From a virus (taxonomy: Duplodnaviria > Caudoviricetes): 64,000 nucleotides of DNA. Shown here one piece after another: positions 11,612-59,352 of the stretch. The notes beneath the pieces are model-generated. The model had not been told where the DNA came from, did no database searches, and saw only the letters and a list, made by a program, of their open reading frames with translations. Made by a program: the position numbers and the translations under genes. Each line of letters starts with the position of its first letter. The first letter of the stretch is position 1. The stretch lies in the IMG/VR virus record IMGVR_UViG_3300044712_000786, positions 96,001 to 160,000 of that record. The stretch is one strand, 5' to 3'.

Positions 11612-12217
11612 TCATCGAACTTCGTCCAGAGTAAGGACGGGGGGCTTTTCTTTAATTGTAACTTCCCAGCGTTTGTCATGTAATATTTGAGTTAGTTGAT
11701 AGTAAACCCGAAGAAACAGATGCTTATTCGCCTCGCTTAAGAGGGGAAGGAGTAAAAGCTTCTCGGTTAAATAGGTTTTAGCAAAGCCTTCGTCATTCTT
11801 TGCGATGTCTTCAGTATTATCTAGCAAATCGGCAAGCTTAATTAGCTTAGCCTGAGGGGAGGTTAGCTTCAGCCGAAACCGCTCCAGTTCTTTGCGGTCA
11901 GCCCTAACTAGAGTAGGATATCGCTCCTTAGTATACTGGTCGGTTAGCTCATCGACTAGAGATAAGACTCTTGCGCCGAAACGATTCAGAATCCAATCAT
12001 CGTTATACTCTGGAGCTAAAGGAGTTACGTCTTCCTTTAAATCGTGAGCTAATGCGGCGATAATAACATCTTCGTCAGAAGTATACTGAGAGACAATCTC
12101 GGCGACCCTCTCAGTGTGAGTCCAATAGGGCTTTCCCGTATACTTGCGAACCTGCTTGATGCTATCATGAGCATCCCGCAAGAGGGGTCTGGCAATATCT
12201 ACATCGTTCATCTTCAA
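11612..12217 (-). CDS. HD-domain hydrolase, RelA/SpoT/Mesh1-like (small alarmone hydrolase-like)
   Basis: AH..QVRKYTGKPYWTH, ALAHDLKED and IKLADLLDN motifs. Confidence 0.8.
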   Translation of the reverse strand: MKMNDVDIARPLLRDAHDSIKQVRKYTGKPYWTHTERVAEIVSQYTSDEDVIIAALAHDLKEDVTPLAPEYNDDWILNRFGARVLSLVDELTDQYTKERYPTLVRADRKELERFRLKLTSPQAKLIKLADLLDNTEDIAKNDEGFAKTYLTEKLLLLPLLSEANKHLFLRVYYQLTQILHDKRWEVTIKEKPPVLTLDEVR

Positions 12218-12405
12218 ATCCTATCAGCTATTTTTAAAAAAGCAAATTAAAATCATGAATTATCCTATCCCTCATTCCATATCCAGAGTGATTAGAAGCC
12301 AGCCCAAAGGGGCTCCTTCCCTCTGTCTCTCCTTCAATAAATCTTTCTTGAGGGTGAAACTTAATCAGATTCCAAGCCCAAGCTAATCCATTATATTGTA
12401 GACTA

Positions 12406-13188
12406 TTAAACAGGGGATTCATTAGAGAACAACGCGCAGTTATCCAAACAGAGCTTGTTATTAATAAACAGCCCCGCTACAATGGGATAATAAATAGCTA
12501 AACAAAGCGAGTTAGCTACCTCTTCATTAAAGGTAAACCTAACCGTTGTCTTGTCATAGGTTCGCTTAACCTCTTCCTCCGCGTCTTCTACCATCTTATT
12601 TAACTGAGCTTTAGTATAAGAAGCGGGGTGAGTTTTAATATCCATTAGGATATCTGCCATGCCTGAGTCAATCTTCCTGACATTGACGGGGAAAGACCCA
12701 TTAATAAAGAAATACTTAGCCGCCCAAGCTAGCCTAAGTAGTTGTACTGCATTCTTTTCAGAGAAGCCATGAGACTCAATAGAAGCTTTTCTCTTGCTGC
12801 CTAATGCTCCCGTCCGCTCGCCGTTCATTAGCCTCTTTTCCCCTGACATATAGCCTAGGATAGACTTAAAGAACTGCGCCGAATCTATTAAATCATATCG
12901 ATGCTTAACAACTAATTCCCATTCATTAGAAGTAGTAGTAAAGTTGTCAGTAAATAGCAGCTCCATAGCCTGAGTATTAGTCTTGCGTAAAGAACAAAGA
13001 AAGTGTCTAAATTCAAAGAGGAACTTATCTTCTCCCCCCGCTCTTAAGTCCTGATGCTCAAAGCGGTCAACGCCGATTACTTTATTAAGTTCGGTATTGA
13101 CAAAGCACCCCCTTTGGTCTAAATCACTAGTGGGGGTATTTAACCCGTAAGCATGGGAGCCCCCCAGAGTTTCACAAATAATCTTCAT
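12406..13188 (-). CDS. Nucleotidyltransferase (YcgL/RNA-repair-associated family)
   Basis: GGSHAYGLNTPTSDLDQRG (GS..DxD) motif. Confidence 0.8.
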   Translation of the reverse strand: MKIICETLGGSHAYGLNTPTSDLDQRGCFVNTELNKVIGVDRFEHQDLRAGGEDKFLFEFRHFLCSLRKTNTQAMELLFTDNFTTTSNEWELVVKHRYDLIDSAQFFKSILGYMSGEKRLMNGERTGALGSKRKASIESHGFSEKNAVQLLRLAWAAKYFFINGSFPVNVRKIDSGMADILMDIKTHPASYTKAQLNKMVEDAEEEVKRTYDKTTVRFTFNEEVANSLCLAIYYPIVAGLFINNKLCLDNCALFSNESPV

Positions 13189-24893: not shown

Positions 24894-25077
24894 TCAGCGA
24901 GGGAGGACTCGAACCTCCAACCTCGTTCATGTAATGAACCCCTATTTACTGACTATCCTCGATTTTCTTACTAGTAGTGAAGGGTTGCAACCCCGCACTA
25001 TGTTCAAATTATCTACTTTTGTCAGCTTTTTCGGGAGGGTTACTAGCCCTGCGCTCTGCCAATTGAGCTACTCGCCG
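24894..25077 (-). ncRNA. tRNA-like RNA (Pro-type acceptor, AGT anticodon loop) with an approximately 110-nt structured insertion
   Basis: CGGCGAG/CTCGCTG acceptor, GCTC-AATTGGCA-GAGC D arm, AGGG-CTAGTAA-CCCT, GGAGG-TTCGAGT-CCTCC T arm; no encoded CCA. Confidence 0.7.
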
Positions 25078-34177: not shown

Positions 34178-34271
34178 TGGCGCAAACGGAGGGATTTGAA
34201 CCCACATTAGGCGTTATCCAATTACGGTAGTTTCGTGCCCAAAGTTTAGGAAACTTTGCCGATACGTTTGC
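34178..34271 (-). tRNA. Atypical tRNA-Arg(CCT)-like RNA with the D-arm-like hairpin placed 3' of the anticodon arm
   Basis: GCAAACG/CGTTTGC-G-CCA; CAAAGT-TTCCTAA-ACTTTG; CGT-AATTGGATA-ACG; GTGGG-TTCAAAT-CCCTC. Confidence 0.65.
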
Positions 34272-36836: not shown

Positions 36837-36913
36837 TGGAGACGCAAGTTGGATTTGCACCAACGAATAGCAAGGTTGCAGCTTGCTGGTTTAGACTACT
36901 CACCCATTGCGTC
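36837..36913 (-). tRNA. tRNA-Cys(GCA)
   Basis: GACGCAA/TTGCGTC, U73, CCA; GCAAG-CTGCAAC-CTTGC; T loop TGCAAAT. Confidence 0.85.
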
Positions 36914-36920
36914 CTGAAAA

Positions 36921-37919
36921 TTACTTCAAAACAAGAAGTTGCGTGCCAGCAACCAAATTTCGGTTGAGGCTAGTAGACTGGATAAAGACATGCCACTTGC
37001 CATGACTAGCAGGGTCTACTTGGATTTCGTAATCGGGCAGACCGAGCATATCTCGCGCATTAACGCCAGAATATACCTTCGCCGTTACTTTATCCTGAAT
37101 ACATACCTGTTTGTAAGCTTGAACCTTCTCGGGCTTAGTAATTTGGTAGTAAGCCGAACCTTTGACGTAAGGCTTTCCAGTCCAACTTTCTACGAAGCTC
37201 TTGATATCCTTCTTCTTACTAACAGGGAAAATCTCATATTGGTGAGTCTTTAGCTCATCCAAATTCCGTTTGACACTAGTTGTCGATAGGCTGCTAGCGT
37301 CAAGATTAAAAAGATTCTTTGTACTGCGAACTCCAGTGCTACGAGCCCTCATAAAGGAAGTCGTAACTGTAGTCATAACGTCACCGATATCGTTCATACC
37401 CTTGGCGGTAGTGTCCCAAGTCATTACATTACCGGCGGGGAACCCACAAGCTTTAGCTTGCTTAACTCCATATTCATTGGGGACCATTACGGACACGGTC
37501 CAATTATCCTTGAGTTGAGAAATCGCTTTCTTTAATTGAGGTTCCTTGTTCCGACTAGCATTCTCTTCGCCATCGGTAATAGCAATCAAAAGAAACGCAT
37601 GGTCTCCATAGAGTTGAGGCGTCTGCTCAAGGTCAGAGATTGCTTGCATCGTCCCATCGATAAGCTTGGTATTGCCATTAGTATAATAATGGTCTTTAAT
37701 CCTAGGGAGCCTCAATACATCCATATCGTATACTAGCGGCTCTACGCTGCTATTAAACAAATAAATTGAAACCCGTGTTTCTTGGTCAGTTTCTTTAGAG
37801 CTTTTGGCTAATTGAGCTACGTGAGTGTCAATGACTTTAATGGTTTCGTCCTTGATGCTGCTCATCGAACCGCTCGCATCTACAACCAAAGCTACGTGAT
37901 TGATAAGATTTTGAATCAT
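36921..37919 (-). CDS. von Willebrand factor A domain protein
   Basis: VALVVDASGSM MIDAS motif, T.LID, ITDGEENAS. Confidence 0.85.
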   Translation of the reverse strand: MIQNLINHVALVVDASGSMSSIKDETIKVIDTHVAQLAKSSKETDQETRVSIYLFNSSVEPLVYDMDVLRLPRIKDHYYTNGNTKLIDGTMQAISDLEQTPQLYGDHAFLLIAITDGEENASRNKEPQLKKAISQLKDNWTVSVMVPNEYGVKQAKACGFPAGNVMTWDTTAKGMNDIGDVMTTVTTSFMRARSTGVRSTKNLFNLDASSLSTTSVKRNLDELKTHQYEIFPVSKKKDIKSFVESWTGKPYVKGSAYYQITKPEKVQAYKQVCIQDKVTAKVYSGVNARDMLGLPDYEIQVDPASHGKWHVFIQSTSLNRNLVAGTQLLVLK

Positions 37920-37925
37920 ATCCCA

Positions 37926-37953
37926 ATTCTAAAAAGAATTTTTGAAAAGTCAA
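37926..37953 (-). promoter_or_regulatory. sigma70-like promoter of the vWA gene
   Basis: TTGACT-N16-TAGAAT, 6 nt before the ATG. Confidence 0.75.
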
Positions 37954-38402
37954 CGTTAAAAACCAAAGGGCTGACTAAGAAGCGCCCCGCTATTGGAGAC
38001 CCGATATCGTTGAAGTCTGCCTTCCCTTTCCCATACCCCTGACAATTGAGGGGCAACCCCAGTTAAATAATCCCTTCCCTCTAAAACAAATGTATCTAAA
38101 TCGGCTTGCCCCGTAGGAAGCGAGTGCAAACGATTCATATAATTACCTTGGGAGCCGCTGATATACATACTCTTTATTACACCTTACAGGGGCATGTATC
38201 CTTTTCGGGATTAACCCCCTTACCACAAACTGGACAAACCCACCCCTTTTTAACGGCAAATGGATAAACGGGATGTATATCTTGAGCCAAGCCCCCAACT
38301 GTCGTATTATAACAGCTATAACACAAATTTTTTCCCTCAAAACAATACAAGGCCGAAGTGAGATTCCCGCAACGAGAACAGGCAAACTTAAATATACTAT
38401 CG

Positions 38403-38756
38403 TTATCTTTCATACAACTTAGCTAGACCATTTTTCAACAGTTCATCATTCAAGTTAGTAGAAGAACCATTAGAATCATAGTAAACTTCAGCTAGATAGC
38501 GCCCAAAGGCGTCTGCTTTGAAAGTTTGGATAACAACCAACTTATTCAAAACCGTATTAACTACGTAAGACTTACCTAGGAGGGCTCTTTGCTTATCCTC
38601 GGCGTTAGAACTCGTTAACTCCCAAGTATTTATGCGATTCAGCCGCAGACGAAGAAGCATCTTTATCTTAAATCCTACATCTACTTCCGCGTCTACCGTA
38701 TCGCCGTCTACTACATTAGTTATTAAAGCCTTGTATAAATATGCTGGTTGAACCAT
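38403..38756 (-). CDS. Thermonuclease (staphylococcal nuclease family)
   Basis: VVDGDTVD, RLNRINTWE, DAFGRYLA, LNDELLKNGLA. Confidence 0.85.
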   Translation of the reverse strand: MVQPAYLYKALITNVVDGDTVDAEVDVGFKIKMLLRLRLNRINTWELTSSNAEDKQRALLGKSYVVNTVLNKLVVIQTFKADAFGRYLAEVYYDSNGSSTNLNDELLKNGLAKLYER

Positions 38757-39431
38757 GCATAAAATTACACGCGCAATGGGGCGAAACCCGTAAAATCTAA
38801 CCCATTATGCAATAACTCGTCCCAATAACCTTCAGAGTCTTTATAAATGATTCTCTTAGGGCCGAATCTATTAATGACTTCTTTAACTACCCATTCAGCA
38901 TCATTAGTAACGCTTATGTTTCCTAAATCCAAATCCTCAATATAAACGATATTAGCGGTATCGTTGACTACCTTGAAATCAGCATGGGGTTTCATTGGGA
39001 TAAATTTTCGCTCCGCTATGTTCCAAAATGTAAGCGGTATAACAGGGCACGCAAAGCTCTTTGTAATTCCAGATGGTATGAAAATTGTCGCCCGTTATGT
39101 TGTTTTCTACCCCACAATCAATCTTATACGAAGATACTTCATCCCTAGTATGGCAAACGTCGCATTCGAGAATAATGTGCTTCATATCGTCTCAATATTA
39201 TTAGGAATAGGTCCAACTTCTCGACCAACTTGCTCGTTCCAATCTTTGTTTATTTCGTCTAATTTGTCCGCTAAAGCCCTGAGTAACCACGCAACAAAAC
39301 AACCGCCTTGATTAGGCGGGGGCCAATAATAAAAATATCCATCTACATCTTTTAGAAAATCGCCTATATAAGCCGTTTCAACGAATACTTGATAACAGCT
39401 ATCGGAATCTTTCTCAAGCCTTAACATAAAA

Positions 39432-39506
39432 TGGTAGCAGCAGAGGTACTCGAAACCTCAGGGAAAACAGCCTTATGAAAGCCGCCCGTCACCTAGACTT
39501 GCTGCC
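39432..39506 (-). tRNA. tRNA-Met/Ile2(CAT), canonical TTC T loop
   Basis: GGCAGCA/TGCTGCT-A-CCA; CGGCT-TTCATAA-GGCTG; GAGGT-TTCGAGT-ACCTC. Confidence 0.8.
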
Positions 39507-40056
39507 AGTTTTTTCAGAGAGTTGTCTACTTGCTGCATCGCCCAATCTAGCTTAGACTCGTCCATTTTTTCAACAACGTCCTCTATACTAAGTTCTAAAT
39601 TCTTGTGAGAGTACATTCGTTTAAATACCATCTGATGCCCCTCGGGGAGTTGGCGCAACCCATTTAAAATAGTATCTCTCGCAAAACGCTGCAAAGATTC
39701 GTTCATTACTCCAAGTCTACCAAATCTTTTTCCTCTGTCAATCCCTGATTTATCAGTTTTACAAAGGATTCCCTTAATTTCCTTCGGACCTTTTGATTAG
39801 CCTTTTTTTTATTAAATTTTTTCTGAAGTCTCGCTTCCCTTCTCATCGTTTCCTCCTTTAATTTGGACTTCAATGGGATTATCCAAGAAAATAGTTTGCT
39901 TCTTCTTTTTACTTAGCCCTGAACGACGTTCATAAGCGACAATAAAAAGCCTGCCTTCATTATCTATTTTGAAGACAGGCTTAACTCTATCCTTGGCGAT
40001 AAGTTTCTTAAGATGATTCTTCACGCTTATATTATAGCGTGGAGCAGATATTTTGT

Positions 40057-40506
40057 CTACGGAACTATCCAAACAGCATTAATTTTATCAAGCTTCTTAT
40101 TATAGCTATAGACAATGTTCGTCCAAGGGCCTACTTCATAAGACCCTACGGTAAAAGCATTTGAGCCAACGGGACGGCACCAGAATTTATATGTCCCGCT
40201 GGGAACGCTTTTGGCTAGCAAATTGACAAAAGTAAAATTAGTAATTGACTGCCCGTTAACCCTTAAGAACTGAAATGTCCCAGTGGTATTAGGCAGAGCA
40301 GGGTCTTCATCCAGAATTTGACCCGCTACCAAGTTTGTGGTAGTAACCGCTACAACATTAGTGCTCGAAACCCCAATATCATACCCGAGAACGGTATAAC
40401 TAGAATCTACATACTTCTCCCAACTTAATAGGGATTTAGAAGTAGCTGTTTGCGCAAACGCACTAAAACCAGCCAAAAGACAGACGGTAAATAGTAACTT
40501 TTTCAT
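40057..40506 (-). CDS. Putative secreted/surface beta-rich protein
   Basis: Signal-peptide-like MKKLLFTVCLLAGFSAFA; Thr/Asn/Ser-rich. Confidence 0.6.
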   Translation of the reverse strand: MKKLLFTVCLLAGFSAFAQTATSKSLLSWEKYVDSSYTVLGYDIGVSSTNVVAVTTTNLVAGQILDEDPALPNTTGTFQFLRVNGQSITNFTFVNLLAKSVPSGTYKFWCRPVGSNAFTVGSYEVGPWTNIVYSYNKKLDKINAVWIVP

Positions 40507-40525
40507 AAACTTTATTACACTAAAA

Positions 40526-40599
40526 TGGTCCGGTAGTCTGGATTTGCACCAGAACAGTTCCCTTCACAGGGGAAGATGCTACATTACATCACGTACCGG
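40526..40599 (-). tRNA. tRNA-His(GTG)
   Basis: TTCCC-CTGTGAA-GGGAA; T loop TGCAAAT; A73-CCA. Confidence 0.8.
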
Positions 40600-40900
40600 A
40601 TAAATCGGGAAGGAGTTATCAATTCCCCGCTGACTCAGTCGGCTTTTCAAGGGCCTTATATAGATGATAAGTCTAAGTTTCTGTATGCTAAAGCTTTATG
40701 AGAGCTTTACCCGAAAGTCTAAAATCTCTTCTGGAAAATATAATTCATCCGCCCTAAGAGCATACTTAGTATTAGAGCCATGAGGACGAACGGTCCAAAG
40801 TTCCGTTTTATATTCTTCAAAATACTCTTTTTCTAATACGTCAACGGTCTGACCGTAGTTTAGTCCAAAAACAGGTTCATTAATAATTGCTATCATAAAT

Positions 40901-40984
40901 TGGTAGCCCCGAAGAGACTTGCACTCTTAAAACCATCGGGTTTAAGCCGAAATGCTGTTCTATTCGCAATAAGGTCACGGGGCC
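40901..40984 (-). tRNA. tRNA-Leu(TAA), short variable loop
   Basis: GGCCCCG/CGGGGCT-A-CCA; CT-TAA-AC loop; T loop TGCAAGT. Confidence 0.8.
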
Positions 40985-40991
40985 ATTAAAT

Positions 40992-41069
40992 TGGTACTGG
41001 CGGCAGGAGTTGCACCTGCGAGCATCTAATTTTGAGTCAGATAGGTATTCTAGTTCCCGTCACGCCAGC
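40992..41069 (-). tRNA. tRNA-Leu(CAA), short variable loop
   Basis: GCTGGCG/CGCCAGT-A-CCA; CT-CAA-AA loop; T loop TGCAACT. Confidence 0.8.
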
Positions 41070-41660
41070 ATTAAATTTAGGAAAAGCCATCTTAAAGAAG
41101 AACTTGCTCGTTTCCTCTTTAACATATCTTACTCCTACTTTGTGTTCATCTGTAATAACTACATATGAAGGAACAATATCTATAAAAGAACCGCTATTAG
41201 CGTAAATTACATCGCCATCTTTATAGACTTCAGGATGATGATTATGTCCCAAAAATATAGCTTTGTAATGTTCCCGCTCTGCAAAATCCAAGGCTCTCGG
41301 AATCATCCGTCCCTTTGAAAACAAAGAGGAAAACTTATGTCCATGAGCCGCATAACACGCATCGCCATCTATAAACCACGAGTATGAATCTAAAAAATTA
41401 AGAGAAGTTATCTTATCTAAGCCGAAAATTCTGCTATCATGGTTGCCCTTCGTAACCACAAGTCGGCCCATTCTTTCCATTCTCTCTAATCGGCGCAAAA
41501 TCTGTTCATCATCTTTTCTCAACTTTCGAGCATAACGAAAATCCAATACATCCCCATTAACTATAAAAAGCTCCGCTTCTTGGTCTAGCACTTTGTTAAT
41601 CGCTCGGCGGTTGCAATAGGGATTTCCCAAGTGCAAATCCGATAGAACTACATTCTTCAT
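41037..41660 (-). CDS. Calcineurin-like metallophosphoesterase (LpxH-like)
   Basis: SDLHLG, NGDVLD, GNHD, HGH and GHNH motifs; 3' end runs into tRNA-Leu(CAA). Confidence 0.85.
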   Translation of the reverse strand: MKNVVLSDLHLGNPYCNRRAINKVLDQEAELFIVNGDVLDFRYARKLRKDDEQILRRLERMERMGRLVVTKGNHDSRIFGLDKITSLNFLDSYSWFIDGDACYAAHGHKFSSLFSKGRMIPRALDFAEREHYKAIFLGHNHHPEVYKDGDVIYANSGSFIDIVPSYVVITDEHKVGVRYVKEETSKFFFKMAFPKFNAGVTGTRIPI

Positions 41661-41705
41661 GTGTATAGACTAGCGACTTTTTTTAAAAAAACAAGAAAAA
41701 AAAAT

Positions 41706-41791
41706 TGGCGGTTCGCAGATGTTCTGCCCATCATTCCTTGCGGAACCATCCGCTTTCCAAGCGGTGATAGTCCTTGACTACTTTACGAACC
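41706..41791 (-). tRNA. tRNA-Ser(GGA)
   Basis: GGTTCGT/GCGAACC-G-CCA; TT-GGA-AA; long variable arm; T loop GGCAGAA. Confidence 0.8.
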
Positions 41792-41792
41792 A

Positions 41793-41878
41793 TGGCGGAT
41801 AAGTATGATACCGCCTCATATCCCCGTGGGGACGCATAGTTTTCGAGACTAGCCTTAGTCTTACTAAGTTACTTATCC
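41793..41878 (-). tRNA. tRNA-Ser(CGA)
   Basis: GGATAAG/CTTATCC-G-CCA; CT-CGA-AA; variable arm; T loop GGCGGTA. Confidence 0.8.
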
Positions 41879-41882
41879 AAAG

Positions 41883-41974
41883 TGGCAGAGGGGTAGGGAA
41901 ATGCTCCCTAGTCCGAATTTACGGCTCCGTGCTGGTTTCAAAGCAGCCCTTAGCTCTTGCTAAGTTACCCCTCT
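41883..41974 (-). tRNA. tRNA-Ser(TGA)
   Basis: AGAGGGG/CCCCTCT-G-CCA; TT-TGA-AA; variable arm; T loop AGCATTT. Confidence 0.8.
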
Positions 41975-42558
41975 ATAATCCTAAAACTCTTCTTTCCTCT
42001 AAATTAAGTTTCTTGAGGGCCTTAAGTCTGGTTCTTTCTCTCAGACCTGATTCGTTTTCCTCTTTAATGCGTGCGGCATCAGCTTTATCATGCTTAGCTA
42101 TCCATTTTCGAGTCTCATTAGTAAGCTCTTTTTCGAGATTATTTCTTCTCAGAATAGTTCTCATATCGCAAGCTGCGCGAGTAGCTTTGTCAGCTTCTTT
42201 TCTGAGAATGCTCTCTTCGCTTTCTCCGTAATCACATCTACAAGGCATATAGTTTCTTTCTAAATAGCGGTTGCGTTGTCATCCATTACAATTTCGTGCA
42301 TGAGTTGACGAATCACAGAAGGATTGACAGCACCCTTATAGTACTTCAGAATATTACCTTCTAACTCTTTCACGGATAGGACTTTCCAGTTAGAAAAGTT
42401 CCCCCGCAATAACTTTAGAAGTTCTTCTTTCGTCGGTTGAGTGCAAGCTTGTTGCATAAAATGGCGGTTAGTTGAAGTCCTGCCCTCCATGCCCTTTCGA
42501 GGCACAATTACGTTAGCACCGTATTCTAAGAACTTTCTTAGTTAACTAACCATTAAAT

Positions 42559-42650
42559 TGGTCCCTCAGGGGAGAATCGCGCTCCTTCGTCTAACTACCC
42601 CACTTATTTTGAGACATTAGATTTACAGGCTAACGTGGGGAACCCTCGGG
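42559..42650 (-). tRNA. Atypical D-armless tRNA-Tyr(GTA)-like RNA
   Basis: CCCGAGG/CTGAGGG-A-CCA; TTAGC-CTGTAAA-TCTAA; CCCCAC in place of the D arm is complementary to GTGGGG in the variable region. Confidence 0.6.
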
Positions 42651-42948
42651 ATTAAATCATTTTTAAATCTTTGTGTTTGTCTACGAATCTCTGGCAAACG
42701 CCCTTCATATAGAATACTGCGCGAGCTTGGGGTGTTCCCATGGTATCTATAATTTCATGATTATAAGCTTGGTCTTTAGCTCTCTTAAGGTCATCTATAA
42801 GCATTTCGAGTTCCACTTGGGGACACTCAATTAGCTCATTCATCCTTCTCTGCCATTCAGCCTGCATTTTCTCATGATTTAAACAGGCTTCCTCGGTTTG
42901 GAATGTCCTACCGTCGCTTGATTGATAAACAAGAAACTTAATCATAAA

Positions 42949-43317
42949 CTATTGTGCGCTAAAATCTTTTATTACTGGAACGGTCCAAGATAGTGGTTCT
43001 TCTACTCCAGTAGTAGAGTTAGTAACCAAGAGCGTATAGAACTTCGTTTCAGATAAGTTTAATCTAATCTGGTTACTCTTTGTAGTCGCCACTAAAGGCC
43101 AAGCTGAATAAGACGTTGAATTAGGGACGAATTCCCTAATATTAAACGAAATAGCGTTTGACGGAGTGGGATACTGCCACTTGAACAAACAGGGCTTAAG
43201 GGTGCCTTGAGCAAAAACACTAAAGGCAATCAAGCTTACGACTAGCATCATTTTTTTCATAAATTGGTACCCTCGGATGGACTTACACCACCAACGTCTC
43301 GCTAATCGGGCGAGCAT
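42949..43317 (-). CDS. Putative secreted protein
   Basis: Likely start MKKMMLVVSLIAFSVFA (signal-like); beta-rich. Confidence 0.5.
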   Translation of the reverse strand: MLARLARRWWCKSIRGYQFMKKMMLVVSLIAFSVFAQGTLKPCLFKWQYPTPSNAISFNIREFVPNSTSYSAWPLVATTKSNQIRLNLSETKFYTLLVTNSTTGVEEPLSWTVPVIKDFSAQ

Positions 43318-43339
43318 TCTATTTTTGAATTACGAGGGC
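43265..43339 (-). tRNA. tRNA-Ile(GAT), C33/U37
   Basis: GCCCTCG/CGAGGGT-A-CCA; CTCGC-CCGATTA-GCGAG; T loop TGTAAGT. Confidence 0.75.
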
Positions 43340-43345
43340 TTAAAT

Positions 43346-43420
43346 TGGTCCCGTCGAGTGGAGTCGCACCACTTTTTCTGGTTCTTCAGACCAGCACACA
43401 AACTCTTGTGTTACAACGGG
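43346..43420 (-). tRNA. tRNA-Phe(GAA)
   Basis: CCCGTTG/CGACGGG-A-CCA; CTGGT-CTGAAGA-ACCAG; T loop TGCGACT. Confidence 0.85.
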
Positions 43421-43519
43421 TTGTCCTTAAGAACATGGTCAGCGCACATCAGCCTGTCCCCATTTACGCTGTGCGGCGAACGCGAGGATTAGGTAACTAC
43501 TTACATGCTCTTAAGAAAT

Positions 43520-43594
43520 TGGTAGCCCTATCGGAACTTGCATCCGATTTCTCTGGTTGAAAGCCAGAACTCCTACTACATAGAGGATAGGGCC
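43520..43594 (-). tRNA. tRNA-Glu(TTC)
   Basis: GGCCCTA/TAGGGCT-A-CCA; TCTGG-CTTTCAA-CCAGA; T loop TGCAAGT. Confidence 0.85.
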
Positions 43595-43690
43595 ATAATG
43601 TCCTTAATTGCTAGTATAGGTCGCTCTCCTTACTAACTATCAGCCAGCGAACTTGTTTGCACTGAGTTCTTATGTAATTAAGGACTAAAT

Positions 43691-43765
43691 TGGTAGCCCT
43701 ATGCGGTTACGCTCCGCACCCTCTACCTTGAAAGGGTAGCGACCTGTCTACTAGTCGATAGGGCC
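43691..43765 (-). tRNA. tRNA-Glu(TTC), second copy
   Basis: GGCCCTA/TAGGGCT-A-CCA; CTACC-CTTTCAA-GGTAG; T loop AGCGTAA. Confidence 0.85.
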
Positions 43766-44021
43766 ATTAAATTATCATGGAACAAATGAAGGAGATTCTC
43801 CTTCAGCTAAAATAATGTTGCTAGGAAAAACTGGTTCTTCTGGCGTCTTAACTATTTTCAACATAATAGGTTCGCCAATATTCGGGCATTTAGCCCAATG
43901 CGTCCATTCATCTTGAATTCTAGTTAGTTTCTTAAATTCCAAATTAGTATGGTCTCCGCCGCATCTTGCACAAGTACGCACGGTAACTACCATATTATCC
44001 GCTTCTTCTATTTTCATAAAT

Positions 44022-44100
44022 TGGTGCAAGCGGTGACAGTTGCAGTCACAGGAATATTCTGGTTAAGAGCCAGTTGCCCCTCTACTGTAGCTTCGCTTGC
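44022..44100 (-). tRNA. tRNA-Lys(CTT)
   Basis: GCAAGCG/CGCTTGC-A-CCA; CT-CTT-AA; T loop TGCAACT. Confidence 0.85.
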
Positions 44101-44377
44101 GAAATTGTTTAGCAGCCTTTGCCGCCCCTTCTACCGCCCTTTTTGGGCATTTCTTTCTTAGCCATATCTTGATAATTTTGATATACTACTTTTGTTAATC
44201 CGTCATTGATATTAGTTACAGAACGTTGAACTAATTCTAAAAAATTCCTAGCATCCGTTTCTTCTAAAAATCGCACCCCAAATCCCTTCCATACGCTATA
44301 ATATGAGTAAGAGCTTTTTTTGTATTGTTGAGGGACATATAGAACACCCTTTTTAACAATTCTCAACTTCATACTCT

Positions 44378-44405
44378 ATCTTAGCAAAATTTTGCCAGAA
44401 GTCAA
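44378..44405 (-). promoter_or_regulatory. sigma70-like promoter
   Basis: TTGACT-N16-TAAGAT, 5 nt before the ATG at 44372. Confidence 0.75.
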
Positions 44406-44637
44406 CTACAAAGCTTTTCCGCAAATCAAACATTCGCACCAACCATCGGGGCCAGTATGATAATAGGTCTTGGGATGTCCACACAAATTCTGTTGTTTTT
44501 CAAGCTCTTTATTAAGAAGCCGCTTATTTCTTTCGAAGTCCTCTTCTAGTTTCCAAAGCGCTCGTTTATACCTAGAATAAGGGGAAGATTCTAATACTTG
44601 TTGCTGTTTAATGTATTCTTCGGACGTTAGCATAAAT

Positions 44638-44713
44638 TGGCTGCTCAACTAGGATTTGCACCCAGAATCTTTCGGGTCAGAACCGAAAATGTTACTAATT
44701 ACACTATTGAGCA
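44638..44713 (-). tRNA. tRNA-Gln(CTG)
   Basis: TGCTCAA/TTGAGCA-G-CCA; TTCGG-TTCTGAC-CCGAA; T loop TGCAAAT. Confidence 0.85.
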
Positions 44714-44902
44714 ATGTTAGTTAAAAGAGAAACCGTACAACCCTCAGAAACATAATGGACTTGATTCGTCTCCGTATCTTTAAATATCCAAGAGTCGCCA
44801 GTAGCCTGAGGGACATGGTAGACTATCGCTTTAGGGCAGAGAGTAAAACATATGCCATGAAAGTTTACACAAACGATATCTCCTTCTTTAATATGCATAA
44901 AT

Positions 44903-44962
44903 TGGAGCCCAACGCCTGCTTTGCACAGGTCAACTCACCTATACCTTATTACATCGCAGAGC
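44903..44962 (-). ncRNA. Anticodon-armless tRNA-like RNA
   Basis: Weak acceptor GCTCTGC/GTTGGGC-T-CCA, D-like loop, CCTG-TGCAAAG-CAGG T arm, no anticodon stem-loop. Confidence 0.45.
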
Positions 44963-45065
44963 AAGCACCCCGCTAACTGCCCCGTTCAAGGGGCTTATCG
45001 GCTTTTTAGTAGATGTGTTTTTTCTGTCCCCAGCTAAGGGGTAGTTAAACTAGTTGGGCTTAAAA

Positions 45066-45110
45066 TTGGGGCCTCGTCAGATATTGCAATCTGCACGCTA
45101 CGCTACGAGG
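45066..45110 (-). ncRNA. tRNA minihelix-like RNA (acceptor plus T arm only)
   Basis: CCTCGT/ACGAGG, C73-CCA; CAGA-TTGCAATA-TCTG; 11-nt linker. Confidence 0.55.
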
Positions 45111-46192
45111 GTAGACTAGGTTCTTACGCGAGGCTTTTTATTAATCTGTTTTCTTGCGCAACAATAAAACTGTAGTCGCCAATCTTTGTATTCTTCTATA
45201 AAACTCCTGAGCATCGAATCATAAGCATCAGACAGAGACGCACGGTATAGGCTTGAACAATCGCAGTTAATACCTGCCCACCTAACGCAAATCTTATAAC
45301 CATCTTTATTATGCCATACTGTCAAAGTGCGAAAATCGCGAGTTTCAGTAGTATGTTTCTGGGTAGTGGCATCTATGCCAGACCATTCAATATAGCTGTC
45401 TTTTAGTTTCTTTAGTAGAGATTCGTATGTCATAAAATGGTGTCCCCATTCGGGTTTGCGCCGAAAGTCTTTAGATTGAGAATCTAAGATGTTACTAATT
45501 ACACTATAGGGACTTTTAGCCGCCCATTGCAGTCGTTCGAGCGGCGATAATCTGTTCAAAAGTAGCAGAGGGTATTCGCATGTTATTAACATAAACGTCC
45601 CCATCTGCTTCAAAAGCCCAATTATACCCCGCAATTCTTTGTCTAACTCGGGGGTTATTCTTAATTGCGCTTATAATAGTATTAAGCTGAGTCAAAGCAT
45701 TATAGGTTCCATCAACTGTTTCAGAGCCTACAGCCGCCTCTACTGTTTTAGCTACAGTATCAGCTAGTAAGAAGCTTTTTTCTGCGGTCCAATCCACAGT
45801 TTTAATGAGGGAGCCAGTATAATCAGGCATAGGAAACGGTCCTTTTATCTGCCAACTATACTCTTCTGCAAGAGTAAGAATGAACCTACATGCCGCCTGT
45901 TTCTGAGATTCTGTTGAATAAGAACTAAAATCAATTAATGCTTTCATAATTTACTTTACACAATTCGTTATAGAGTTAATCTTTGCGCCTGTAAAAAACA
46001 TCATTCCATTAGTCCGAAAGTCTATGATAATAATGTTCTTAGAATAACCCGCTCCCCAAGAACAAGACGCCCAATTAGTCATATTAGTAGACATAAGTGA
46101 ATAACTATTAGTCACTTCTACATCAACTATAGTAAGGTTCTGAGCCGCCAGAGAACAAGCAAAAAACATCGCCAAGATGAATCTCATATTTC

Positions 46193-46220
46193 ATCTTAGC
46201 AAGATTTTAGGGGAAGTCAA
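46193..46220 (-). promoter_or_regulatory. sigma70-like promoter
   Basis: TTGACT-N16-TAAGAT, 5 nt before the ATG at 46187. Confidence 0.75.
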
Positions 46221-46230
46221 CTATCTAAAG

Positions 46231-46308
46231 TGGCAGTTGCGGTTGGATTTGCACCAACGGTTTTACTGCTTCAAAGGCAGTTGGATTGGACTACTCTCCC
46301 ACGCAACA
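46231..46308 (-). tRNA. tRNA-Gln(TTG)
   Basis: ACTGC-CTTTGAA-GCAGT; T loop TGCAAAT; G73-CCA. Confidence 0.85.
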
Positions 46309-46389
46309 ATTTTGCCAGTGTTTGATAGACGCTTCCTTTGAAGACTTACCGCTAGGTAATAATCATACCCTTAACTGGCTAATATAAAA

Positions 46390-46464
46390 TGGCGGTCTAT
46401 ACGGGACTCGCACCCGTTATTCCTGCGTGACAGGCAAGTATGATAACTCATTCAACAATAGACC
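46390..46464 (-). tRNA. tRNA-Asp(GTC)
   Basis: GGTCTAT/ATAGACC-G-CCA; CT-GTC-AC; T loop TGCGAGT. Confidence 0.85.
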
Positions 46465-46578
46465 AAACAAATACTAGCTGGGACCCCAACACGTTATAGC
46501 CGTAAGGGTATTTCGCTCAGGTTACATGTTACATTACCTGCTTCAATTACACATGTATGCGCCAGCTAGAAAAAACAA

Positions 46579-54128: not shown

Positions 54129-54173
54129 AAAATTATTGTTACTTGCGCGGGGAATAACCGTGTAATATAATAT

Positions 54174-54545
54174 ATGAGGCATAGCCCTATAAAATTACTT
54201 TGCGCGTTTTGTAAAGAATCTTTTACTCGACCACTGTCTAAGTTAAAAAATAGTAAATCAAAAATATACTTTTGCTCTCGTCATTGTAAAGACGAGGCTC
54301 AAAAAATAAAGAATAAATTTACCGATATCCACCCATCGCATTACGGAACAGGCTCTTGCAAAGAAACATATAGACGCATTGCTCTAGAAAACCTTCCTCA
54401 TAAATGCAATCGTTGTGGTTACAATAAATTACTAGGCGTATTAGCAGTACATCATAAAGATAGAGACAAATCAAATAATCTAGTTAGTAACTTAGAAATT
54501 CTTTGCCATAACTGTCATGCCGAAGAACATATTCTAAACGATTAA
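54174..54545 (+). CDS. HNH homing endonuclease inserted in the tRNA cluster
   Basis: CAFC...FCSRHC zinc finger; CNRCG...VHHKDRDKSNNLVSNLEILCHNCHAEEH. Confidence 0.85.
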   Translation: MRHSPIKLLCAFCKESFTRPLSKLKNSKSKIYFCSRHCKDEAQKIKNKFTDIHPSHYGTGSCKETYRRIALENLPHKCNRCGYNKLLGVLAVHHKDRDKSNNLVSNLEILCHNCHAEEHILND

Positions 54546-54548
54546 AAT

Positions 54549-54641
54549 TGGTACTCCCCGTAGGTAACGCTCCTACACACGGCACTCATCTAGTGCGACT
54601 TGGGCTTATAAGGCCCACGATTCTCTTTGAATTAGGGGAGC
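54549..54641 (-). tRNA. tRNA-Ile(TAT) with a long variable arm
   Basis: GCTCCCC/GGGGAGT-A-CCA; TGGGC-CTTATAA-GCCCA; GCAC-TAGATGA-GTGC; T loop AGCGTTA. Confidence 0.75.
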
Positions 54642-54716
54642 AAAAAATTACCATCAGGCCATGGTTTACATTACCATCTTTAAGACTTACGGTTTGTATC
54701 GTCCTGATGGACAAAT

Positions 54717-54790
54717 TGGAGCACTATATCGGTACTGCCCCGACTTATCCAGATTGGCAATCTGATGCATCACTTTTATGCTAATAGTGC
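54717..54790 (-). tRNA. tRNA-Gly(GCC)
   Basis: GCACTAT/ATAGTGC-T-CCA; TT-GCC-AA; T loop GGCAGTA. Confidence 0.85.
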
Positions 54791-54796
54791 TGAAAA

Positions 54797-54870
54797 TGGT
54801 CCGATATGTCAGAATCGCACTGACCCCACAAGTTCCCAAAACTTGCATGCTACTTCAACACCTATATCGG
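54797..54870 (-). tRNA. tRNA-Pro(TGG)
   Basis: CCGATAT/ATATCGG-A-CCA; CAAGT-TTTGGGA-ACTTG; T loop TGCGATT. Confidence 0.85.
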
Positions 54871-54879
54871 AGTGTAAAT

Positions 54880-54963
54880 TGGTAGGCGTAGAGAGACTTG
54901 CACTCCCAAGGCTTCATGGTCCTAAGCCATGCGACTCTGCTATTCGTCCTTAACCATACGCCC
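54880..54963 (-). tRNA. tRNA-Leu(TAG), short variable loop
   Basis: GGGCGTA/TACGCCT-A-CCA; CATGG-CTTAGGA-CCATG; T loop TGCAAGT. Confidence 0.8.
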
Positions 54964-57876: not shown

Positions 57877-59352
57877 TCACACAGTCACTTTGTTATAGCG
57901 TTCCTGACCAATAACTTCCATCATCGTGTCATAAGGGGTAAAGTTCTTACCCGATAGGACGGTTTTAAAGATAGAGGGAGAGAAACCACTAACTAAGGTT
58001 GCTCCGCGCTCATCCATTTCAACGGGCGATTGACCCGTATTAACTCTAGCGTCCAAGTTCCAAAATACAACATGAGGAACCTTGTATCCAGCCTTATCAA
58101 ACTTTTGCTTGATAGTCTCGAAATTACTCTTGCTATTATTGTCGCAAGCCTTATCGAACTGCATATCAGACAGGATATACAATACGTCAGGCATTTCCTT
58201 CTTAGGAACCTTATTCGCTACAGCAGCATTCAGAATCAAATCAAACGCAGCCTGTAAGTTAGTGTTTCCACCCCAAGGGGCACGCATTACGTTCAAAACC
58301 CGCTCAGTTAAAGAACTTCCTTGCACTTGCAATAAGCTAGGGCTAGCCTCGAAAGTAATGAAGTGATTCTTGAAGAAACCCTCAATTCTTTCTGCCATAT
58401 AGATGCCTAGACCAACACTAACCAACATCGGCTGTCCAGCCATAGAACCCGAAACGTCTACCAAGCAGAGACCATTGTGAGGATTCTCTTCTAAGTAGTT
58501 AGGCAAAGCCCTCCACTGCAACTCAACAGTAGGGTCTACTCCAGACTGAGCCTTTTGGACTAGCTCATGAGGATATAGCACAGACGCATTAATCTTAGCT
58601 TCGCCCGTAGCTACCTTACCAAGGTAAGCAGTATAGCCAATCGGGTCATGCTTGCCGAAAGCCTTTCGATAAATCATGCTGGCGCGAGAAGGAACAGACT
58701 CATAGTCAATCTCGTTCCAATTCTTGGAAGACATCTTTACTTCAACCACGTTAAGGTATTTCCTTAAGGAAGTAAGCATCTTGCGATAAGTCTTAGGAGA
58801 CATATCCAAAGCCTTCATAAGCTTCTTAGCAATAAGAGCCTCCGAAGAACCCTCAGAAGGCATCCACTTAGCCAACAGGGAAATAGCTTCCCCCTTCTTC
58901 ATAAGCTTCAAATCAGCTTTAACTTGCTTAACTAAGAACGAGGTAACTTCATCCTCTACCTTAGTGCCAAATAAGCAAAAAAGGTCATCAAAACGACCAA
59001 ATTCGGCTACATTAGCCAAGTTTCGAACAACAATTTTGGGATTGTTATTCGCCAACCAGCTTAGCATAGTGCGAAAAGCCTTGCGTTGTCCTTGACCCCC
59101 GCGAACATCACGGAAGTAAAAGGCAATCTTAGTAGCTAGCAACTTATCTTCGTTGAAAGCGTTGGAGAATAAGCTCAGAACATTAGCTTCGGGGGTATTT
59201 CGCAATGCGCCACCCAAGGCAAAGAAATCAACCAAGCTGCTCTTAGAAGTCGAAGGAGTGATAGCTCCATTTTCGGTTTGAGTCATAGTGTGAATCTTAG
59301 TAACGGTCTTAGGTGCCTTACTGTTCTTAATAGCTTTAATTAGTTTGCTCAT
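57877..59352 (-). CDS. DUF2828-family protein (TROVE/Ro60-like helical domain plus vWA)
   Basis: TENGA, VDFF, FYFRDVRGGQGQR, GRFDDL, LLAKWMP, VPSRAS; vWA LVDVSGSM, WGGNTN, ILSDMQFD, FWNL, VSGFS. Confidence 0.85.
   Translation of the reverse strand: MSKLIKAIKNSKAPKTVTKIHTMTQTENGAITPSTSKSSLVDFFALGGALRNTPEANVLSLFSNAFNEDKLLATKIAFYFRDVRGGQGQRKAFRTMLSWLANNNPKIVVRNLANVAEFGRFDDLFCLFGTKVEDEVTSFLVKQVKADLKLMKKGEAISLLAKWMPSEGSSEALIAKKLMKALDMSPKTYRKMLTSLRKYLNVVEVKMSSKNWNEIDYESVPSRASMIYRKAFGKHDPIGYTAYLGKVATGEAKINASVLYPHELVQKAQSGVDPTVELQWRALPNYLEENPHNGLCLVDVSGSMAGQPMLVSVGLGIYMAERIEGFFKNHFITFEASPSLLQVQGSSLTERVLNVMRAPWGGNTNLQAAFDLILNAAVANKVPKKEMPDVLYILSDMQFDKACDNNSKSNFETIKQKFDKAGYKVPHVVFWNLDARVNTGQSPVEMDERGATLVSGFSPSIFKTVLSGKNFTPYDTMMEVIGQERYNKVTV

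Follow-up and report, generated by a model that had tools for sequence, protein, structure and literature searches.

Whether transfer RNA (tRNA) genes that lack the G18-U55 contact are decaying, misaligned or built around a different elbow is the question raised by an array of 34 such genes in a 64,000-nucleotide stretch of a tailed phage genome (the window; bases 96001-160000 of the 202,704-bp IMG/VR virus record IMGVR_UViG_3300044712_000786, which has direct terminal repeats and is judged complete). The contact between G18 and pseudouridine (Psi) 55, and U55 itself, are taught as near-invariant in elongator tRNAs, and TruB and other elbow-binding partners are understood via that corner of the molecule, where G18 inserts itself between bases 57 and 58 to meet the pseudouridine at 55. 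The bases found here point to working tRNA genes with a second, structurally equivalent elbow design built on A18 and G55, and to selection on the elbow itself, a reading that we consider likely.

After curation, the 34 tRNA genes were found to lie on the minus strand throughout, from tRNA-Cys to tRNA-Leu(UAG), and to cover 20 amino acids (Table 1). They were sought with a scanner of our own, which uses stem pairing, loop lengths and the CCA end only and is blind to T-loop sequence, and with ARAGORN and the Rfam tRNA model RF00005 (gathering threshold 29 bits). The scanner returned 28 CCA-ended candidates scoring at least 17 on the minus strand, nearly all within the array, as against none reaching 17 on the plus strand of the whole genome, so the array is beyond chance. 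ARAGORN reported 16 tRNA genes, all on the minus strand, and Rfam matched 13 tRNAs at gathering, of which 12 belong to the array, or 16/34 with laxer filters; each tool thus recovered 16/34 and the two combined 19/34, the sub-threshold RF00005 scores arising in part because G55 and the absence of GG count against a gene in that model. Missed by both were 15 genes (the four Ser, Leu(UAG), Leu(UAA), Ala, Val, Tyr, Thr, Met, one Asn, Trp, Lys(CUU) and one Glu), most of which gave a cloverleaf in an unconstrained fold. With the exceptions of Ala, where the acceptor is bulged, and Trp, nearly all members have a 7-bp acceptor, a 5-bp T stem with a 7-nucleotide loop, a 5-bp anticodon stem with a 7-nucleotide loop, a discriminator base and CCA, with 17-21 of 21 stem pairs formed.

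Position 55 was G in 34/34 genes, none of which therefore has the canonical G18-U55 combination. In the Infernal alignments to RF00005 the T arm ran ungapped with G beneath the U55 of the model (for example GGUGCAAAUCC against GGUUCgAaUCC), so the register is right, and our own scan likewise placed G at loop position 2 in 34/34; no alternative register with a canonical U55 emerged from either. G18-G19 was present in 0/34, every D loop having instead an A and, next to it, the base complementary to base 56. In this way Watson-Crick pairing of 19 with 56 was kept in all its forms: G-C in 29 (D-loop AG with C56), C-G in two (AC with G56, in Arg(UCU) and the UUU tRNA), A-U in two (AA with U56, in Ile(GAU) and Met) and U-A in one (AU with A56, in one Asn). 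The 54-58 pair, a U-A reverse Hoogsteen pair in the canonical elbow, was U-A in 22, with correlated replacements by A-U in seven, G-G in four and C-A in one, so that U54 was lost in 12/34, and base 57 was a purine in all 34. Read as five-base motifs, the T loops were UGNRA in 22 and CGNRA in one (Y-G-N-R-A in 23/34), and the other 11 kept G at the second and a purine at the fourth position with A-U or G-G closing pairs.

Synthetase identity elements were retained: Ala has G3-U70, Cys has U73, the Ser genes (4/4) have G73 with a long arm, Tyr is of class II shape and has A73, G73 is found in each of Trp, Asp and Gln, and His has its extra 5' base. CCA was encoded in 33/34 genes, and the 34 genes carry 31 distinct anticodons, with every codon box covered if U34 reads the family boxes. 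The three covarying tertiary contacts, together with the identity elements, the CCA ends and the anticodon coverage, argue for selection for working tRNAs and not for decay. In the canonical-elbow RNAs of the same genome GG always occurred together with TTC, and the presence of these RNAs indicates that the swap is not a genome-wide mutational bias; one of them, a YrlA-like tRNA mimic, lies inside the array and serves as an internal control. The original prediction, made from the letters alone, had claimed about 34 tRNAs for all 20 amino acids with G55, AG or no GG at 18-19 in most D loops, and covariation of 54-58 as T-A, A-T or G-G, and had read these as an alternative A18-G55 elbow under selection. 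Infernal alignment and our own scan bore out the gene count and G55 in 34/34, the D-loop and 54-58 claims held with one C-A pair added to the latter, and the reading itself gained support from the joint changes at 18-55, 19-56 and 54-58, the identity elements and the canonical-elbow RNAs alongside.

The occurrence of the swap in other phages was surveyed in IMG/VR with the pattern GGTGCAAATCC followed by 11 nucleotides and CCA, which matched more than 118 loci, about 40% of the matches being full cloverleaves. Among 364 unique CCA-ended tRNAs from 118 loci, U55 with GG was found in 244, U55 without GG in 17, G55 without GG in 92 and G55 with GG in nine (Fisher p = 6e-57), mixed 18-19/55 states, that is intermediates, being rare (26/362). 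In a control sample of loci picked by the canonical pattern, G55 was present in 15/424 other tRNAs (3.5%), 14/15 of them without GG. Penetrance of G55 among phages formed a continuum (0/19, 1/22, 4/14, 7/15, 13/23, 17/18 and 34/34). Phage record G004 (G+C content 50%) has 27 G55 tRNAs and about two others, so that the swap is essentially complete there as in the phage studied here, whereas most other carriers have one or a few G55 tRNAs. Three further phage records have mixed arrays in which G55 and U55 genes bear complementary, non-duplicated anticodons: G005 (GC 41%, 14 G55 and nine U55), G006 (GC 57%, about 17 and about 19) and G007 (GC 33%, about 12 and about 13). The nearest neighbours of the 34 genes by isoacceptor were 60-77% identical and mostly canonical, and are uninformative on a single origin.

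The same pattern in prokaryote genomes identified real tRNAs in Saccharibacteria and other candidate phyla radiation (CPR) bacteria, and in tRNA-Cys of Thorarchaeota and marine group II (MGII) archaea. In a complete Thorarchaeota chromosome (L138, CP070761.1) TTC was present in 31/32 tRNAs found, and the only tRNA-Cys(GCA) found has the D loop AGCAGCT and the T loop TGCAAAT, that is, A18 and G55, from which it follows that the design probably supports translation in a cell. Archaeal tRNA-Cys(GCA) with the same two loops was also present in L152, L162 and L233 (MGII/Poseidoniales and related metagenome-assembled genomes). The elbow swap is thus not unique to this phage, for it recurs among phages and occurs in some cells; the distinctive point is that here it is fixed in a complete 20-amino-acid set. 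A literature search, with most subscription journals outside its reach, found no description of an A18/G55 elbow variant. Other non-canonical T loops also recur in phage tRNAs, some with U55 kept, as in A54-U58 (ATCGT), G54-G58 (GTCAG) and U56 with A19 (TTTGATT with AATGAACA), and one with C55 (TCCGATT); loci with such loops include L005, L022, L038, L055, L056, L061 and others.

In the elbow proposed here, A18 would replace G18 and contact G55, a geometry that we infer by analogy to riboswitch structures, and the T loop would become the U/C-G-N-R-A type used with an intercalating adenosine in flavin mononucleotide (FMN) and cobalamin riboswitches, the remaining contacts (the 19-56 pair, the 54-58 pair and purine 57) being kept. 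The swap would have been fixed separately in each of 34 unrelated isoacceptors, which suggests that selection in the phage lineage acted on the elbow; as each conversion takes two coordinated changes, intermediates are rare and the relatives are mostly canonical, directional selection is the best reading. The likeliest benefit would be a tRNA supply, expressed and charged during infection, that is insulated from proteins reading the canonical T54-Psi55/G18 corner, as G55 cannot become Psi55 and 12 members are also without U54, and a T-loop-directed nuclease or modifier would then miss its site. Several observations weigh against this account. The four Ser tRNAs gave no RF00005 match even at E <= 1; about six members (Trp, Leu(UAA), Leu(UAG), Met, Ala and Thr) formed weaker cloverleaves when folded alone; and G55 and U55 tRNAs in the same mixed phage arrays did not differ in GC or stem quality, so that sequence gives no sign of a stability effect. 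Trp, Leu(UAA) and Leu(UAG) are the weakest members, and as Trp is represented by one weak candidate, the count of 20 amino acids hangs on it.

The genes around the array bear on what may have driven the change. The nucleases that the original prediction had listed nearby as candidates for cutting tRNA (thermonuclease, DEDDh exonuclease, PD-(D/E)XK and HNH proteins) are present, but the tRNase role gained no support, as they have the look of homing endonucleases or DNA enzymes and a Pfam and PHROG scan of about 90 open reading frames (ORFs), many of them without assignment, recognised no known tRNase or tRNA-modifying family. The PD-(D/E)XK_5 protein, weakly related to PDB entry 2OST (the homing endonuclease I-Ssp6803I of a tRNA intron), resembles a free-standing homing endonuclease, as do the small HNH ORFs, and such enzymes are typical of tRNA regions in phages. 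At the far end of the array, the HNH_4 protein has homologues (tblastn) directly beside G55-containing arrays in phages G004 (near 40867), G005 and G006 and in two bacterial loci (L171 4410-4976 and L226 517-1095; one Verrucomicrobiaceae), and a 60%-identical homologue adjoins two G55 tRNAs in L431 (1034-1681). More distant homologues (33%) were located in Rnl1/Rnl2/PNK/vWA repair modules, where the nearest 10 kb contain no tRNA, and the HNH_4 protein may be a mobile endonuclease travelling with tRNA cassettes or an RNA-repair partner.

Defence against a nuclease, the function put forward in the original prediction, is one of two comparably likely explanations for the selective agent, each of them possible rather than probable. 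Under it, A18/G55 and the loss of U54 would resist a tRNase that reads or cuts the canonical T loop, be it a host abortive-infection enzyme or a phage enzyme, while the complete set keeps translation running; every codon box is decodable, as expected if the host pool were lost, and the array lies by RNA-damage-response genes (Ro60-like DUF2828/DUF7788, the Y-RNA mimic, an RlaP nucleotidyltransferase, and DSP and metallo-phosphatases), with distant homologues of the array-end HNH protein in Rnl1/Rnl2/PNK repair modules. A T-loop tRNase does exist in CdiA-CT E479, which has a PD-(D/E)XK fold and cuts between the conserved T and Psi (PMC9086364), and phage tRNAs have been proposed to escape anticodon nucleases via loop changes (PMC10264068). 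Opposed to this are the absence of a recognised tRNase family among the roughly 90 ORFs, the resemblance of the array nucleases to homing endonucleases or DNA enzymes, the canonical elbows that the phage retains in Leu(UAA) and the Y-RNA mimic, and the mixed arrays of G005, G006 and G007, where the anticodons are not duplicated and a universal T-loop nuclease would leave the sets incomplete. Mixed arrays and the archaeal G55 tRNA-Cys speak against the view that G55 in general serves as an all-or-none self mark; for the phage here, in which the swap is complete, such a mark is possible. We think it rather unlikely that the set forms an orthogonal pool in which a host suicide tRNase or an unrecognised phage enzyme disables the canonical-elbow tRNAs of the host at their T loops and the A18/G55 tRNAs alone survive; if true, the Ro60-like/Y-RNA and nucleotidyltransferase/phosphatase repair genes would back the surviving set and the swap would be a genome-wide self/non-self tRNA mark. 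The comparably likely explanation is that a UGNRA loop with A18 locks the elbow without 5-methyluridine at 54 or Psi55, so that phage tRNAs produced rapidly and in quantity, or those of organisms poor in modification enzymes, would fold and persist in the absence of TruB/TrmA-type enzymes. UGNRA with an intercalating adenosine is preferred, and UUCRA performs worse, in unmodified riboswitch RNAs; many unrelated phages of 33-57% GC have the swap in a small share of their tRNAs, and it is also found in reduced-genome CPR bacteria and in archaeal tRNA-Cys; and U54, too, is lost in 12/34. Independence from modification does not alone account for full conversion here, as most phages convert few or no tRNAs (0/19 in Bacillus phage MrDarsey), and no sequence sign of compensation for weak stems was seen.

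Drift is a less probable account of the same data: if A18/G55 serves as well as G18/U55, it could drift in phage tRNAs, which evolve fast, move between genomes with the array homing endonucleases and reach full conversion by historical accident. The continuum of penetrance from 0/19 to 34/34 is as this would have it, as are the HNH homologues flanking G55-containing arrays in G004, G005, G006, L171 and L226 and lying next to two G55 tRNAs in L431, but the need for two coordinated changes per conversion with few intermediates (26/362) does not fit, 34 independent conversions with mostly canonical nearest relatives are hard to obtain without directional pressure, and canonical-elbow RNAs persist in the same genome. 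A cause at the level of DNA, in which U55G would rid the tRNA genes of a restriction site or of a target for a homing endonuclease (the conserved GGTTCGAATCC box) and G18A would compensate, seems very improbable. Restriction-site avoidance elsewhere in the genome is extreme (over all 202.7 kb, GATC 0 observed against about 560 expected, CCGG 47 against 329 and GTAC 81 against 401, with CTGCAG, GTCGAC and CTCGAG absent), and an HNH gene accompanies G55-containing arrays. Restriction avoidance was nonetheless rejected as the cause of U55G, since TTCGAA (72 against 86) and TCGA (549 against 600) are not depleted, and a change to TTCAA would remove the sites with U55 untouched; a homing endonuclease against the canonical T box was rejected as unlikely, since the phage keeps GGTTCGAATCC in Leu(UAA) and many U55 tRNA genes are retained next to the HNH homologue in G005 and G006. 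Hardly more credible is a role outside translation, as decoys or as donors for non-ribosomal reactions: staphylococcal cell-wall tRNA-Gly is a precedent, being without the same conserved elbow bases, but the phage genes span 20 amino acids with a full set of anticodons, bear the identity elements read by synthetases, preserve the 19-56 pair by covariation as the staphylococcal tRNAs do not, and share their elbow with the only tRNA-Cys found in an archaeal chromosome.

If the 34 genes are working tRNAs under selection for an A18/G55 elbow, this corner of tRNA would have a second natural solution, the set would form a natural test of which elbow-reading enzymes need U55 and G18, and a testable question would be posed on phage-host conflict over tRNA. 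Phage tRNA complements, and analyses of codon compensation, are probably undercounted wherever this elbow is used, because the standard tools find so few of the genes.

Table 1. tRNA genes of the array, canonical-elbow RNAs and neighbouring protein genes (window positions, except where genome is stated).
Feature	Position	Strand	Sequence features	Detection and remarks
tRNA-Leu(UAG)	54880-54963	minus	T loop TGCAAGT, A73, CCA	own scan, 7/7 acceptor, 5/5 T stem; free fold not cloverleaf; moderate confidence
tRNA-Pro(UGG)	54797-54870	minus	T loop TGCGATT, D loop TGAAGTA	ARAGORN; Rfam 43.1 bits; 21/21 pairs
tRNA-Gly(GCC)	54717-54790	minus	T loop GGCAGTA (G54-G58), U73	Rfam 42.2 bits; 21/21 pairs
Class-II-shaped tRNA, anticodon UAU (probably Ile)	54549-54641	minus	T loop AGCGTTA	ARAGORN; free fold cloverleaf, z = -3.2
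tRNA-Ala(UGC)	54053-54128	minus	G3-U70, bulged U in acceptor 3' strand, T loop AGCGTTA	relaxed ARAGORN, folds; moderate confidence
tRNA-Arg(UCU)	53508-53583	minus	T loop TGGGAGT (G56), D loop AATTACTA (C19)	ARAGORN; Rfam 51.4 bits
tRNA-Val(UAC)	53148-53221	minus	T loop AGCGTTA	own scan; free fold cloverleaf
tRNA-Gly(UCC)	53063-53140	minus	T loop TGCAAGT	ARAGORN; Rfam 43.6 bits
tRNA-Tyr(GUA)	50314-50400	minus	class II, A73, T loop AGCGTTA	own scan, fold
tRNA-Thr(UGU)	50234-50308	minus	C33, T loop TGCGAGT	own scan, fold; moderate confidence
Class-II-shaped tRNA, anticodon UUU (probably Lys)	49587-49675	minus	T loop TGGAAAT (G56), AC in D loop	ARAGORN; free fold cloverleaf, z = -2.1
tRNA-Met(CAU)	49510-49583	minus	T loop TGTAACT (U56), D loop AAGTAATT (A19)	relaxed ARAGORN; fold z = -2.35; acceptor register ambiguous
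tRNA-Arg(ACG)	49054-49131	minus	T loop TGCAACT; sole member without encoded CCA	ARAGORN; Rfam 33.8 bits
tRNA-Arg(UCG)	48761-48836	minus	T loop TGCAATT	ARAGORN; Rfam 51.9 bits with alignment
tRNA-Asn(GUU)	48177-48252	minus	C33, T loop TGAAATT (A56), D loop AGACATTC (U19)	ARAGORN; Rfam 51.6 bits with alignment
tRNA-Asn(GUU)	48094-48167	minus	G73, T loop AGCGTTA	own scan, 21/21 pairs; free fold cloverleaf
tRNA-Trp(CCA)	46946-47020	minus	G73, T loop TGCAAGT, weak D arm	relaxed ARAGORN, own scan; poor free fold; lowest confidence of set
tRNA-Asp(GUC)	46390-46464	minus	G73, T loop TGCGAGT, D loop ATGAGTTA	ARAGORN; Rfam 44.8 bits
tRNA-Gln(UUG)	46231-46308	minus	G73, T loop TGCAAAT	ARAGORN; Rfam 52.1 bits
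tRNA-Glu(CUC)	45438-45513	minus	T loop CGCAAAC (C54-A58)	ARAGORN; Rfam 54.7 bits
tRNA-Gln(CUG)	44638-44713	minus	U1-A72, G73, T loop TGCAAAT	ARAGORN; Rfam 55.8 bits
tRNA-Lys(CUU)	44022-44100	minus	T loop TGCAACT, 8-nucleotide variable loop	own scan
tRNA-Glu(UUC)	43691-43765	minus	T loop AGCGTAA (A54-U58)	ARAGORN; 21/21 pairs
tRNA-Glu(UUC)	43520-43594	minus	T loop TGCAAGT	own scan, 21/21 pairs; fold z = -2.3
tRNA-Phe(GAA)	43346-43420	minus	T loop TGCGACT	ARAGORN; Rfam 51.9 bits
tRNA-Ile(GAU)	43265-43339	minus	C33, T loop TGTAAGT (U56), D loop AAAAATA (A19)	Rfam 43.2 bits; 21/21 pairs
tRNA-Ser(GCU)	42462-42551	minus	class II, G73, T loop GGCAGGA	own scan; free fold cloverleaf, z = -2.7; no Rfam match
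tRNA-Ser(UGA)	41883-41974	minus	class II, G73, T loop AGCATTT	own scan; fold z = -2.7
tRNA-Ser(CGA)	41793-41878	minus	class II, G73, T loop GGCGGTA	own scan; fold
tRNA-Ser(GGA)	41706-41791	minus	class II, G73, T loop GGCAGAA	own scan; free fold cloverleaf, z = -3.9
tRNA-Leu(CAA)	40992-41069	minus	short variable loop, T loop TGCAACT	Rfam 37.6 bits with alignment
tRNA-Leu(UAA)	40901-40984	minus	T loop TGCAAGT	own scan, relaxed ARAGORN; free fold not cloverleaf; moderate confidence
tRNA-His(GUG)	40526-40599	minus	extra 5' base pairs with base 73, T loop TGCAAAT	ARAGORN; Rfam 36.5 bits
tRNA-Cys(GCA)	36837-36913	minus	U73, T loop TGCAAAT	ARAGORN; Rfam 56.4 bits with alignment
Leu(UAA), canonical elbow	genome 85127-85215		keeps GGTTCGAATCC box	
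YrlA-like tRNA mimic	48852-48958	minus	T loop TTCGAGT, D loop AATTGGCA	inside array; sequence reading, weak YrlA match of 22.1 bits
Interrupted tRNA, canonical elbow	24894-25077	minus	AATTGGCA and TTCGAGT	outside array; sequence reading
tRNA-like gene	34178-34271	minus	canonical T loop TTCAAAT, CCA, uncertain anticodon	Rfam 29.1 bits; own scan
PD-(D/E)XK_5 protein	49736-50176	minus		within array; only PDB relative 2OST, weak E of 0.39
Small HNH_3/zinc-finger ORF	54174-54545	plus		within array, opposite strand; homologue in G004 array
SNase-domain ORF	38403-38756	minus		generic SNase
RNase_T match	36077-36661			matches DNA polymerase exonuclease PHROG
HNH_4 protein, 212 aa	31205-31843	minus		far end of array; Pfam and PHROG
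Ro60-like DUF2828 + DUF7788 protein	57877-59352	minus		directly upstream of array; Pfam E = 1.5e-44 and 1.8e-50

Several individual genes of the array are unusual outside the elbow. Leu(UAG) and Leu(UAA) have no long variable arm, and in both the stretch from base 9 to the D stem is longer than usual by 6-7 bases; in the unusual 8-nucleotide connector of Leu(UAG), AAGG complements CCUU of the variable region, and ACC in the connector of Leu(UAA) complements GGU of its variable region, a complementarity that suggests an extra helix covarying between the two genes. The UAU and UUU class-II-shaped tRNAs have a long stem-loop variable arm and fall outside textbook identity rules, and as the UAU type recurs in two unrelated phages (G004 near 39738 and G005 near 3949) it looks like a conserved phage tRNA form. 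C33 in place of the near-universal U33 was seen in Ile(GAU), Thr(UGU) and the Asn(GUU) gene at 48177-48252, and also in several tRNAs of other phage arrays. Among relaxed ARAGORN candidates, a second Trp at 53234-53307 was discarded as having no tRNA fold, and those at 45237-45331, 45866-45960 and 42330-42422 did not fold as tRNAs. An element at 39432-39506 on the minus strand is doubtful: it ends in CCA, its acceptor and T arm pair perfectly, its T loop is the canonical TTCGAGT and its anticodon loop has CAU, but the D arm is poor, an ORF end overlaps it and Rfam gave no match.

The phage genome has a GC content of about 39% and encodes a 4244-aa ORF, a large terminase, replication genes and a large sugar-biosynthesis cluster, and DNA near-identical to it occurs in rhizosphere metagenomes, with no match listed among RNA data sets. 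No close cultured-phage relative was found, megablast against INPHARED giving no match; a search for relatives with the ParB-like gene as protein seed gave nothing, and the DUF2828 gene as seed gave one distant locus whose only tRNA is a canonical tRNA-Pro. At its best the canonical Leu(UAA) gene matched a Bacteroidota sample at 79% identity and two Bacilli at 69%. The RlaP RNA-repair nucleotidyltransferase and an HD_4 (RelA/SpoT-type hydrolase) protein are encoded close to each other (11612-13188, minus strand), upstream of the tRNA region.

Among known systems, Bacillus phage vB_BanS_MrDarsey and Tsamsa-like siphophages are likewise large tailed phages with a long tRNA array by a Ro60-like DUF2828 gene and a metallophosphatase, and a Tsamsa-like homologue is the closest match of the Ro60-like protein (43% identity). 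MrDarsey, however, has GG and TTC in 19/19 tRNAs, whereas the array here has A18 and G55 in 34/34 and is decoding-complete; the clearest single comparison is tRNA-Asp, which is 86% identical between the two and shows both changes, the T loop reading TTCGAGT in MrDarsey and TGCGAGT here and the D loop ATGGGTTA there and ATGAGTTA here, among other differences. In FMN and cobalamin riboswitches the T loops are UGNRA (89%) or CGNRA (11%), with a receptor adenosine that intercalates between positions 4 and 5 and hydrogen-bonds the G2 sugar edge, whereas tRNA T loops are UUCRA, a type that does worse than UGNRA in the unmodified riboswitch context, and one ribosomal RNA T loop is GGAAG (bioRxiv 10.1101/2022.12.26.521914). 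The phage loops resemble this module in sequence, with an adenosine present in the partner loop and G-G closed loops that parallel the ribosomal GGAAG, and differ in being set in a tRNA elbow where D-loop A18 is the presumed intercalator and a Watson-Crick 19-56 pair stands alongside; the A18/G55 elbow thus looks like a riboswitch-type T-loop module set in tRNA. Natural bacterial tRNAs without G18 and U55 are also known in the staphylococcal non-proteinogenic cell-wall tRNA-Gly, which is without G18, G19, U55 and C56 (PMC4574755), but there the 19-56 pair is lost as well, one amino acid is carried and the ribosome is avoided, while the phage set keeps 19-56 by covariation and serves all amino acids, so that it has neither the loss of both elbow pairs nor the restriction to one amino acid outside translation. 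With the proposal that phage tRNAs evade anticodon nucleases by anticodon-loop changes (PMC10264068), the present array shares the idea that phage tRNAs diverge from those of the host at sites read by enzymes, that work being concerned with the anticodon loop and not with the T loop, D loop or acceptor.

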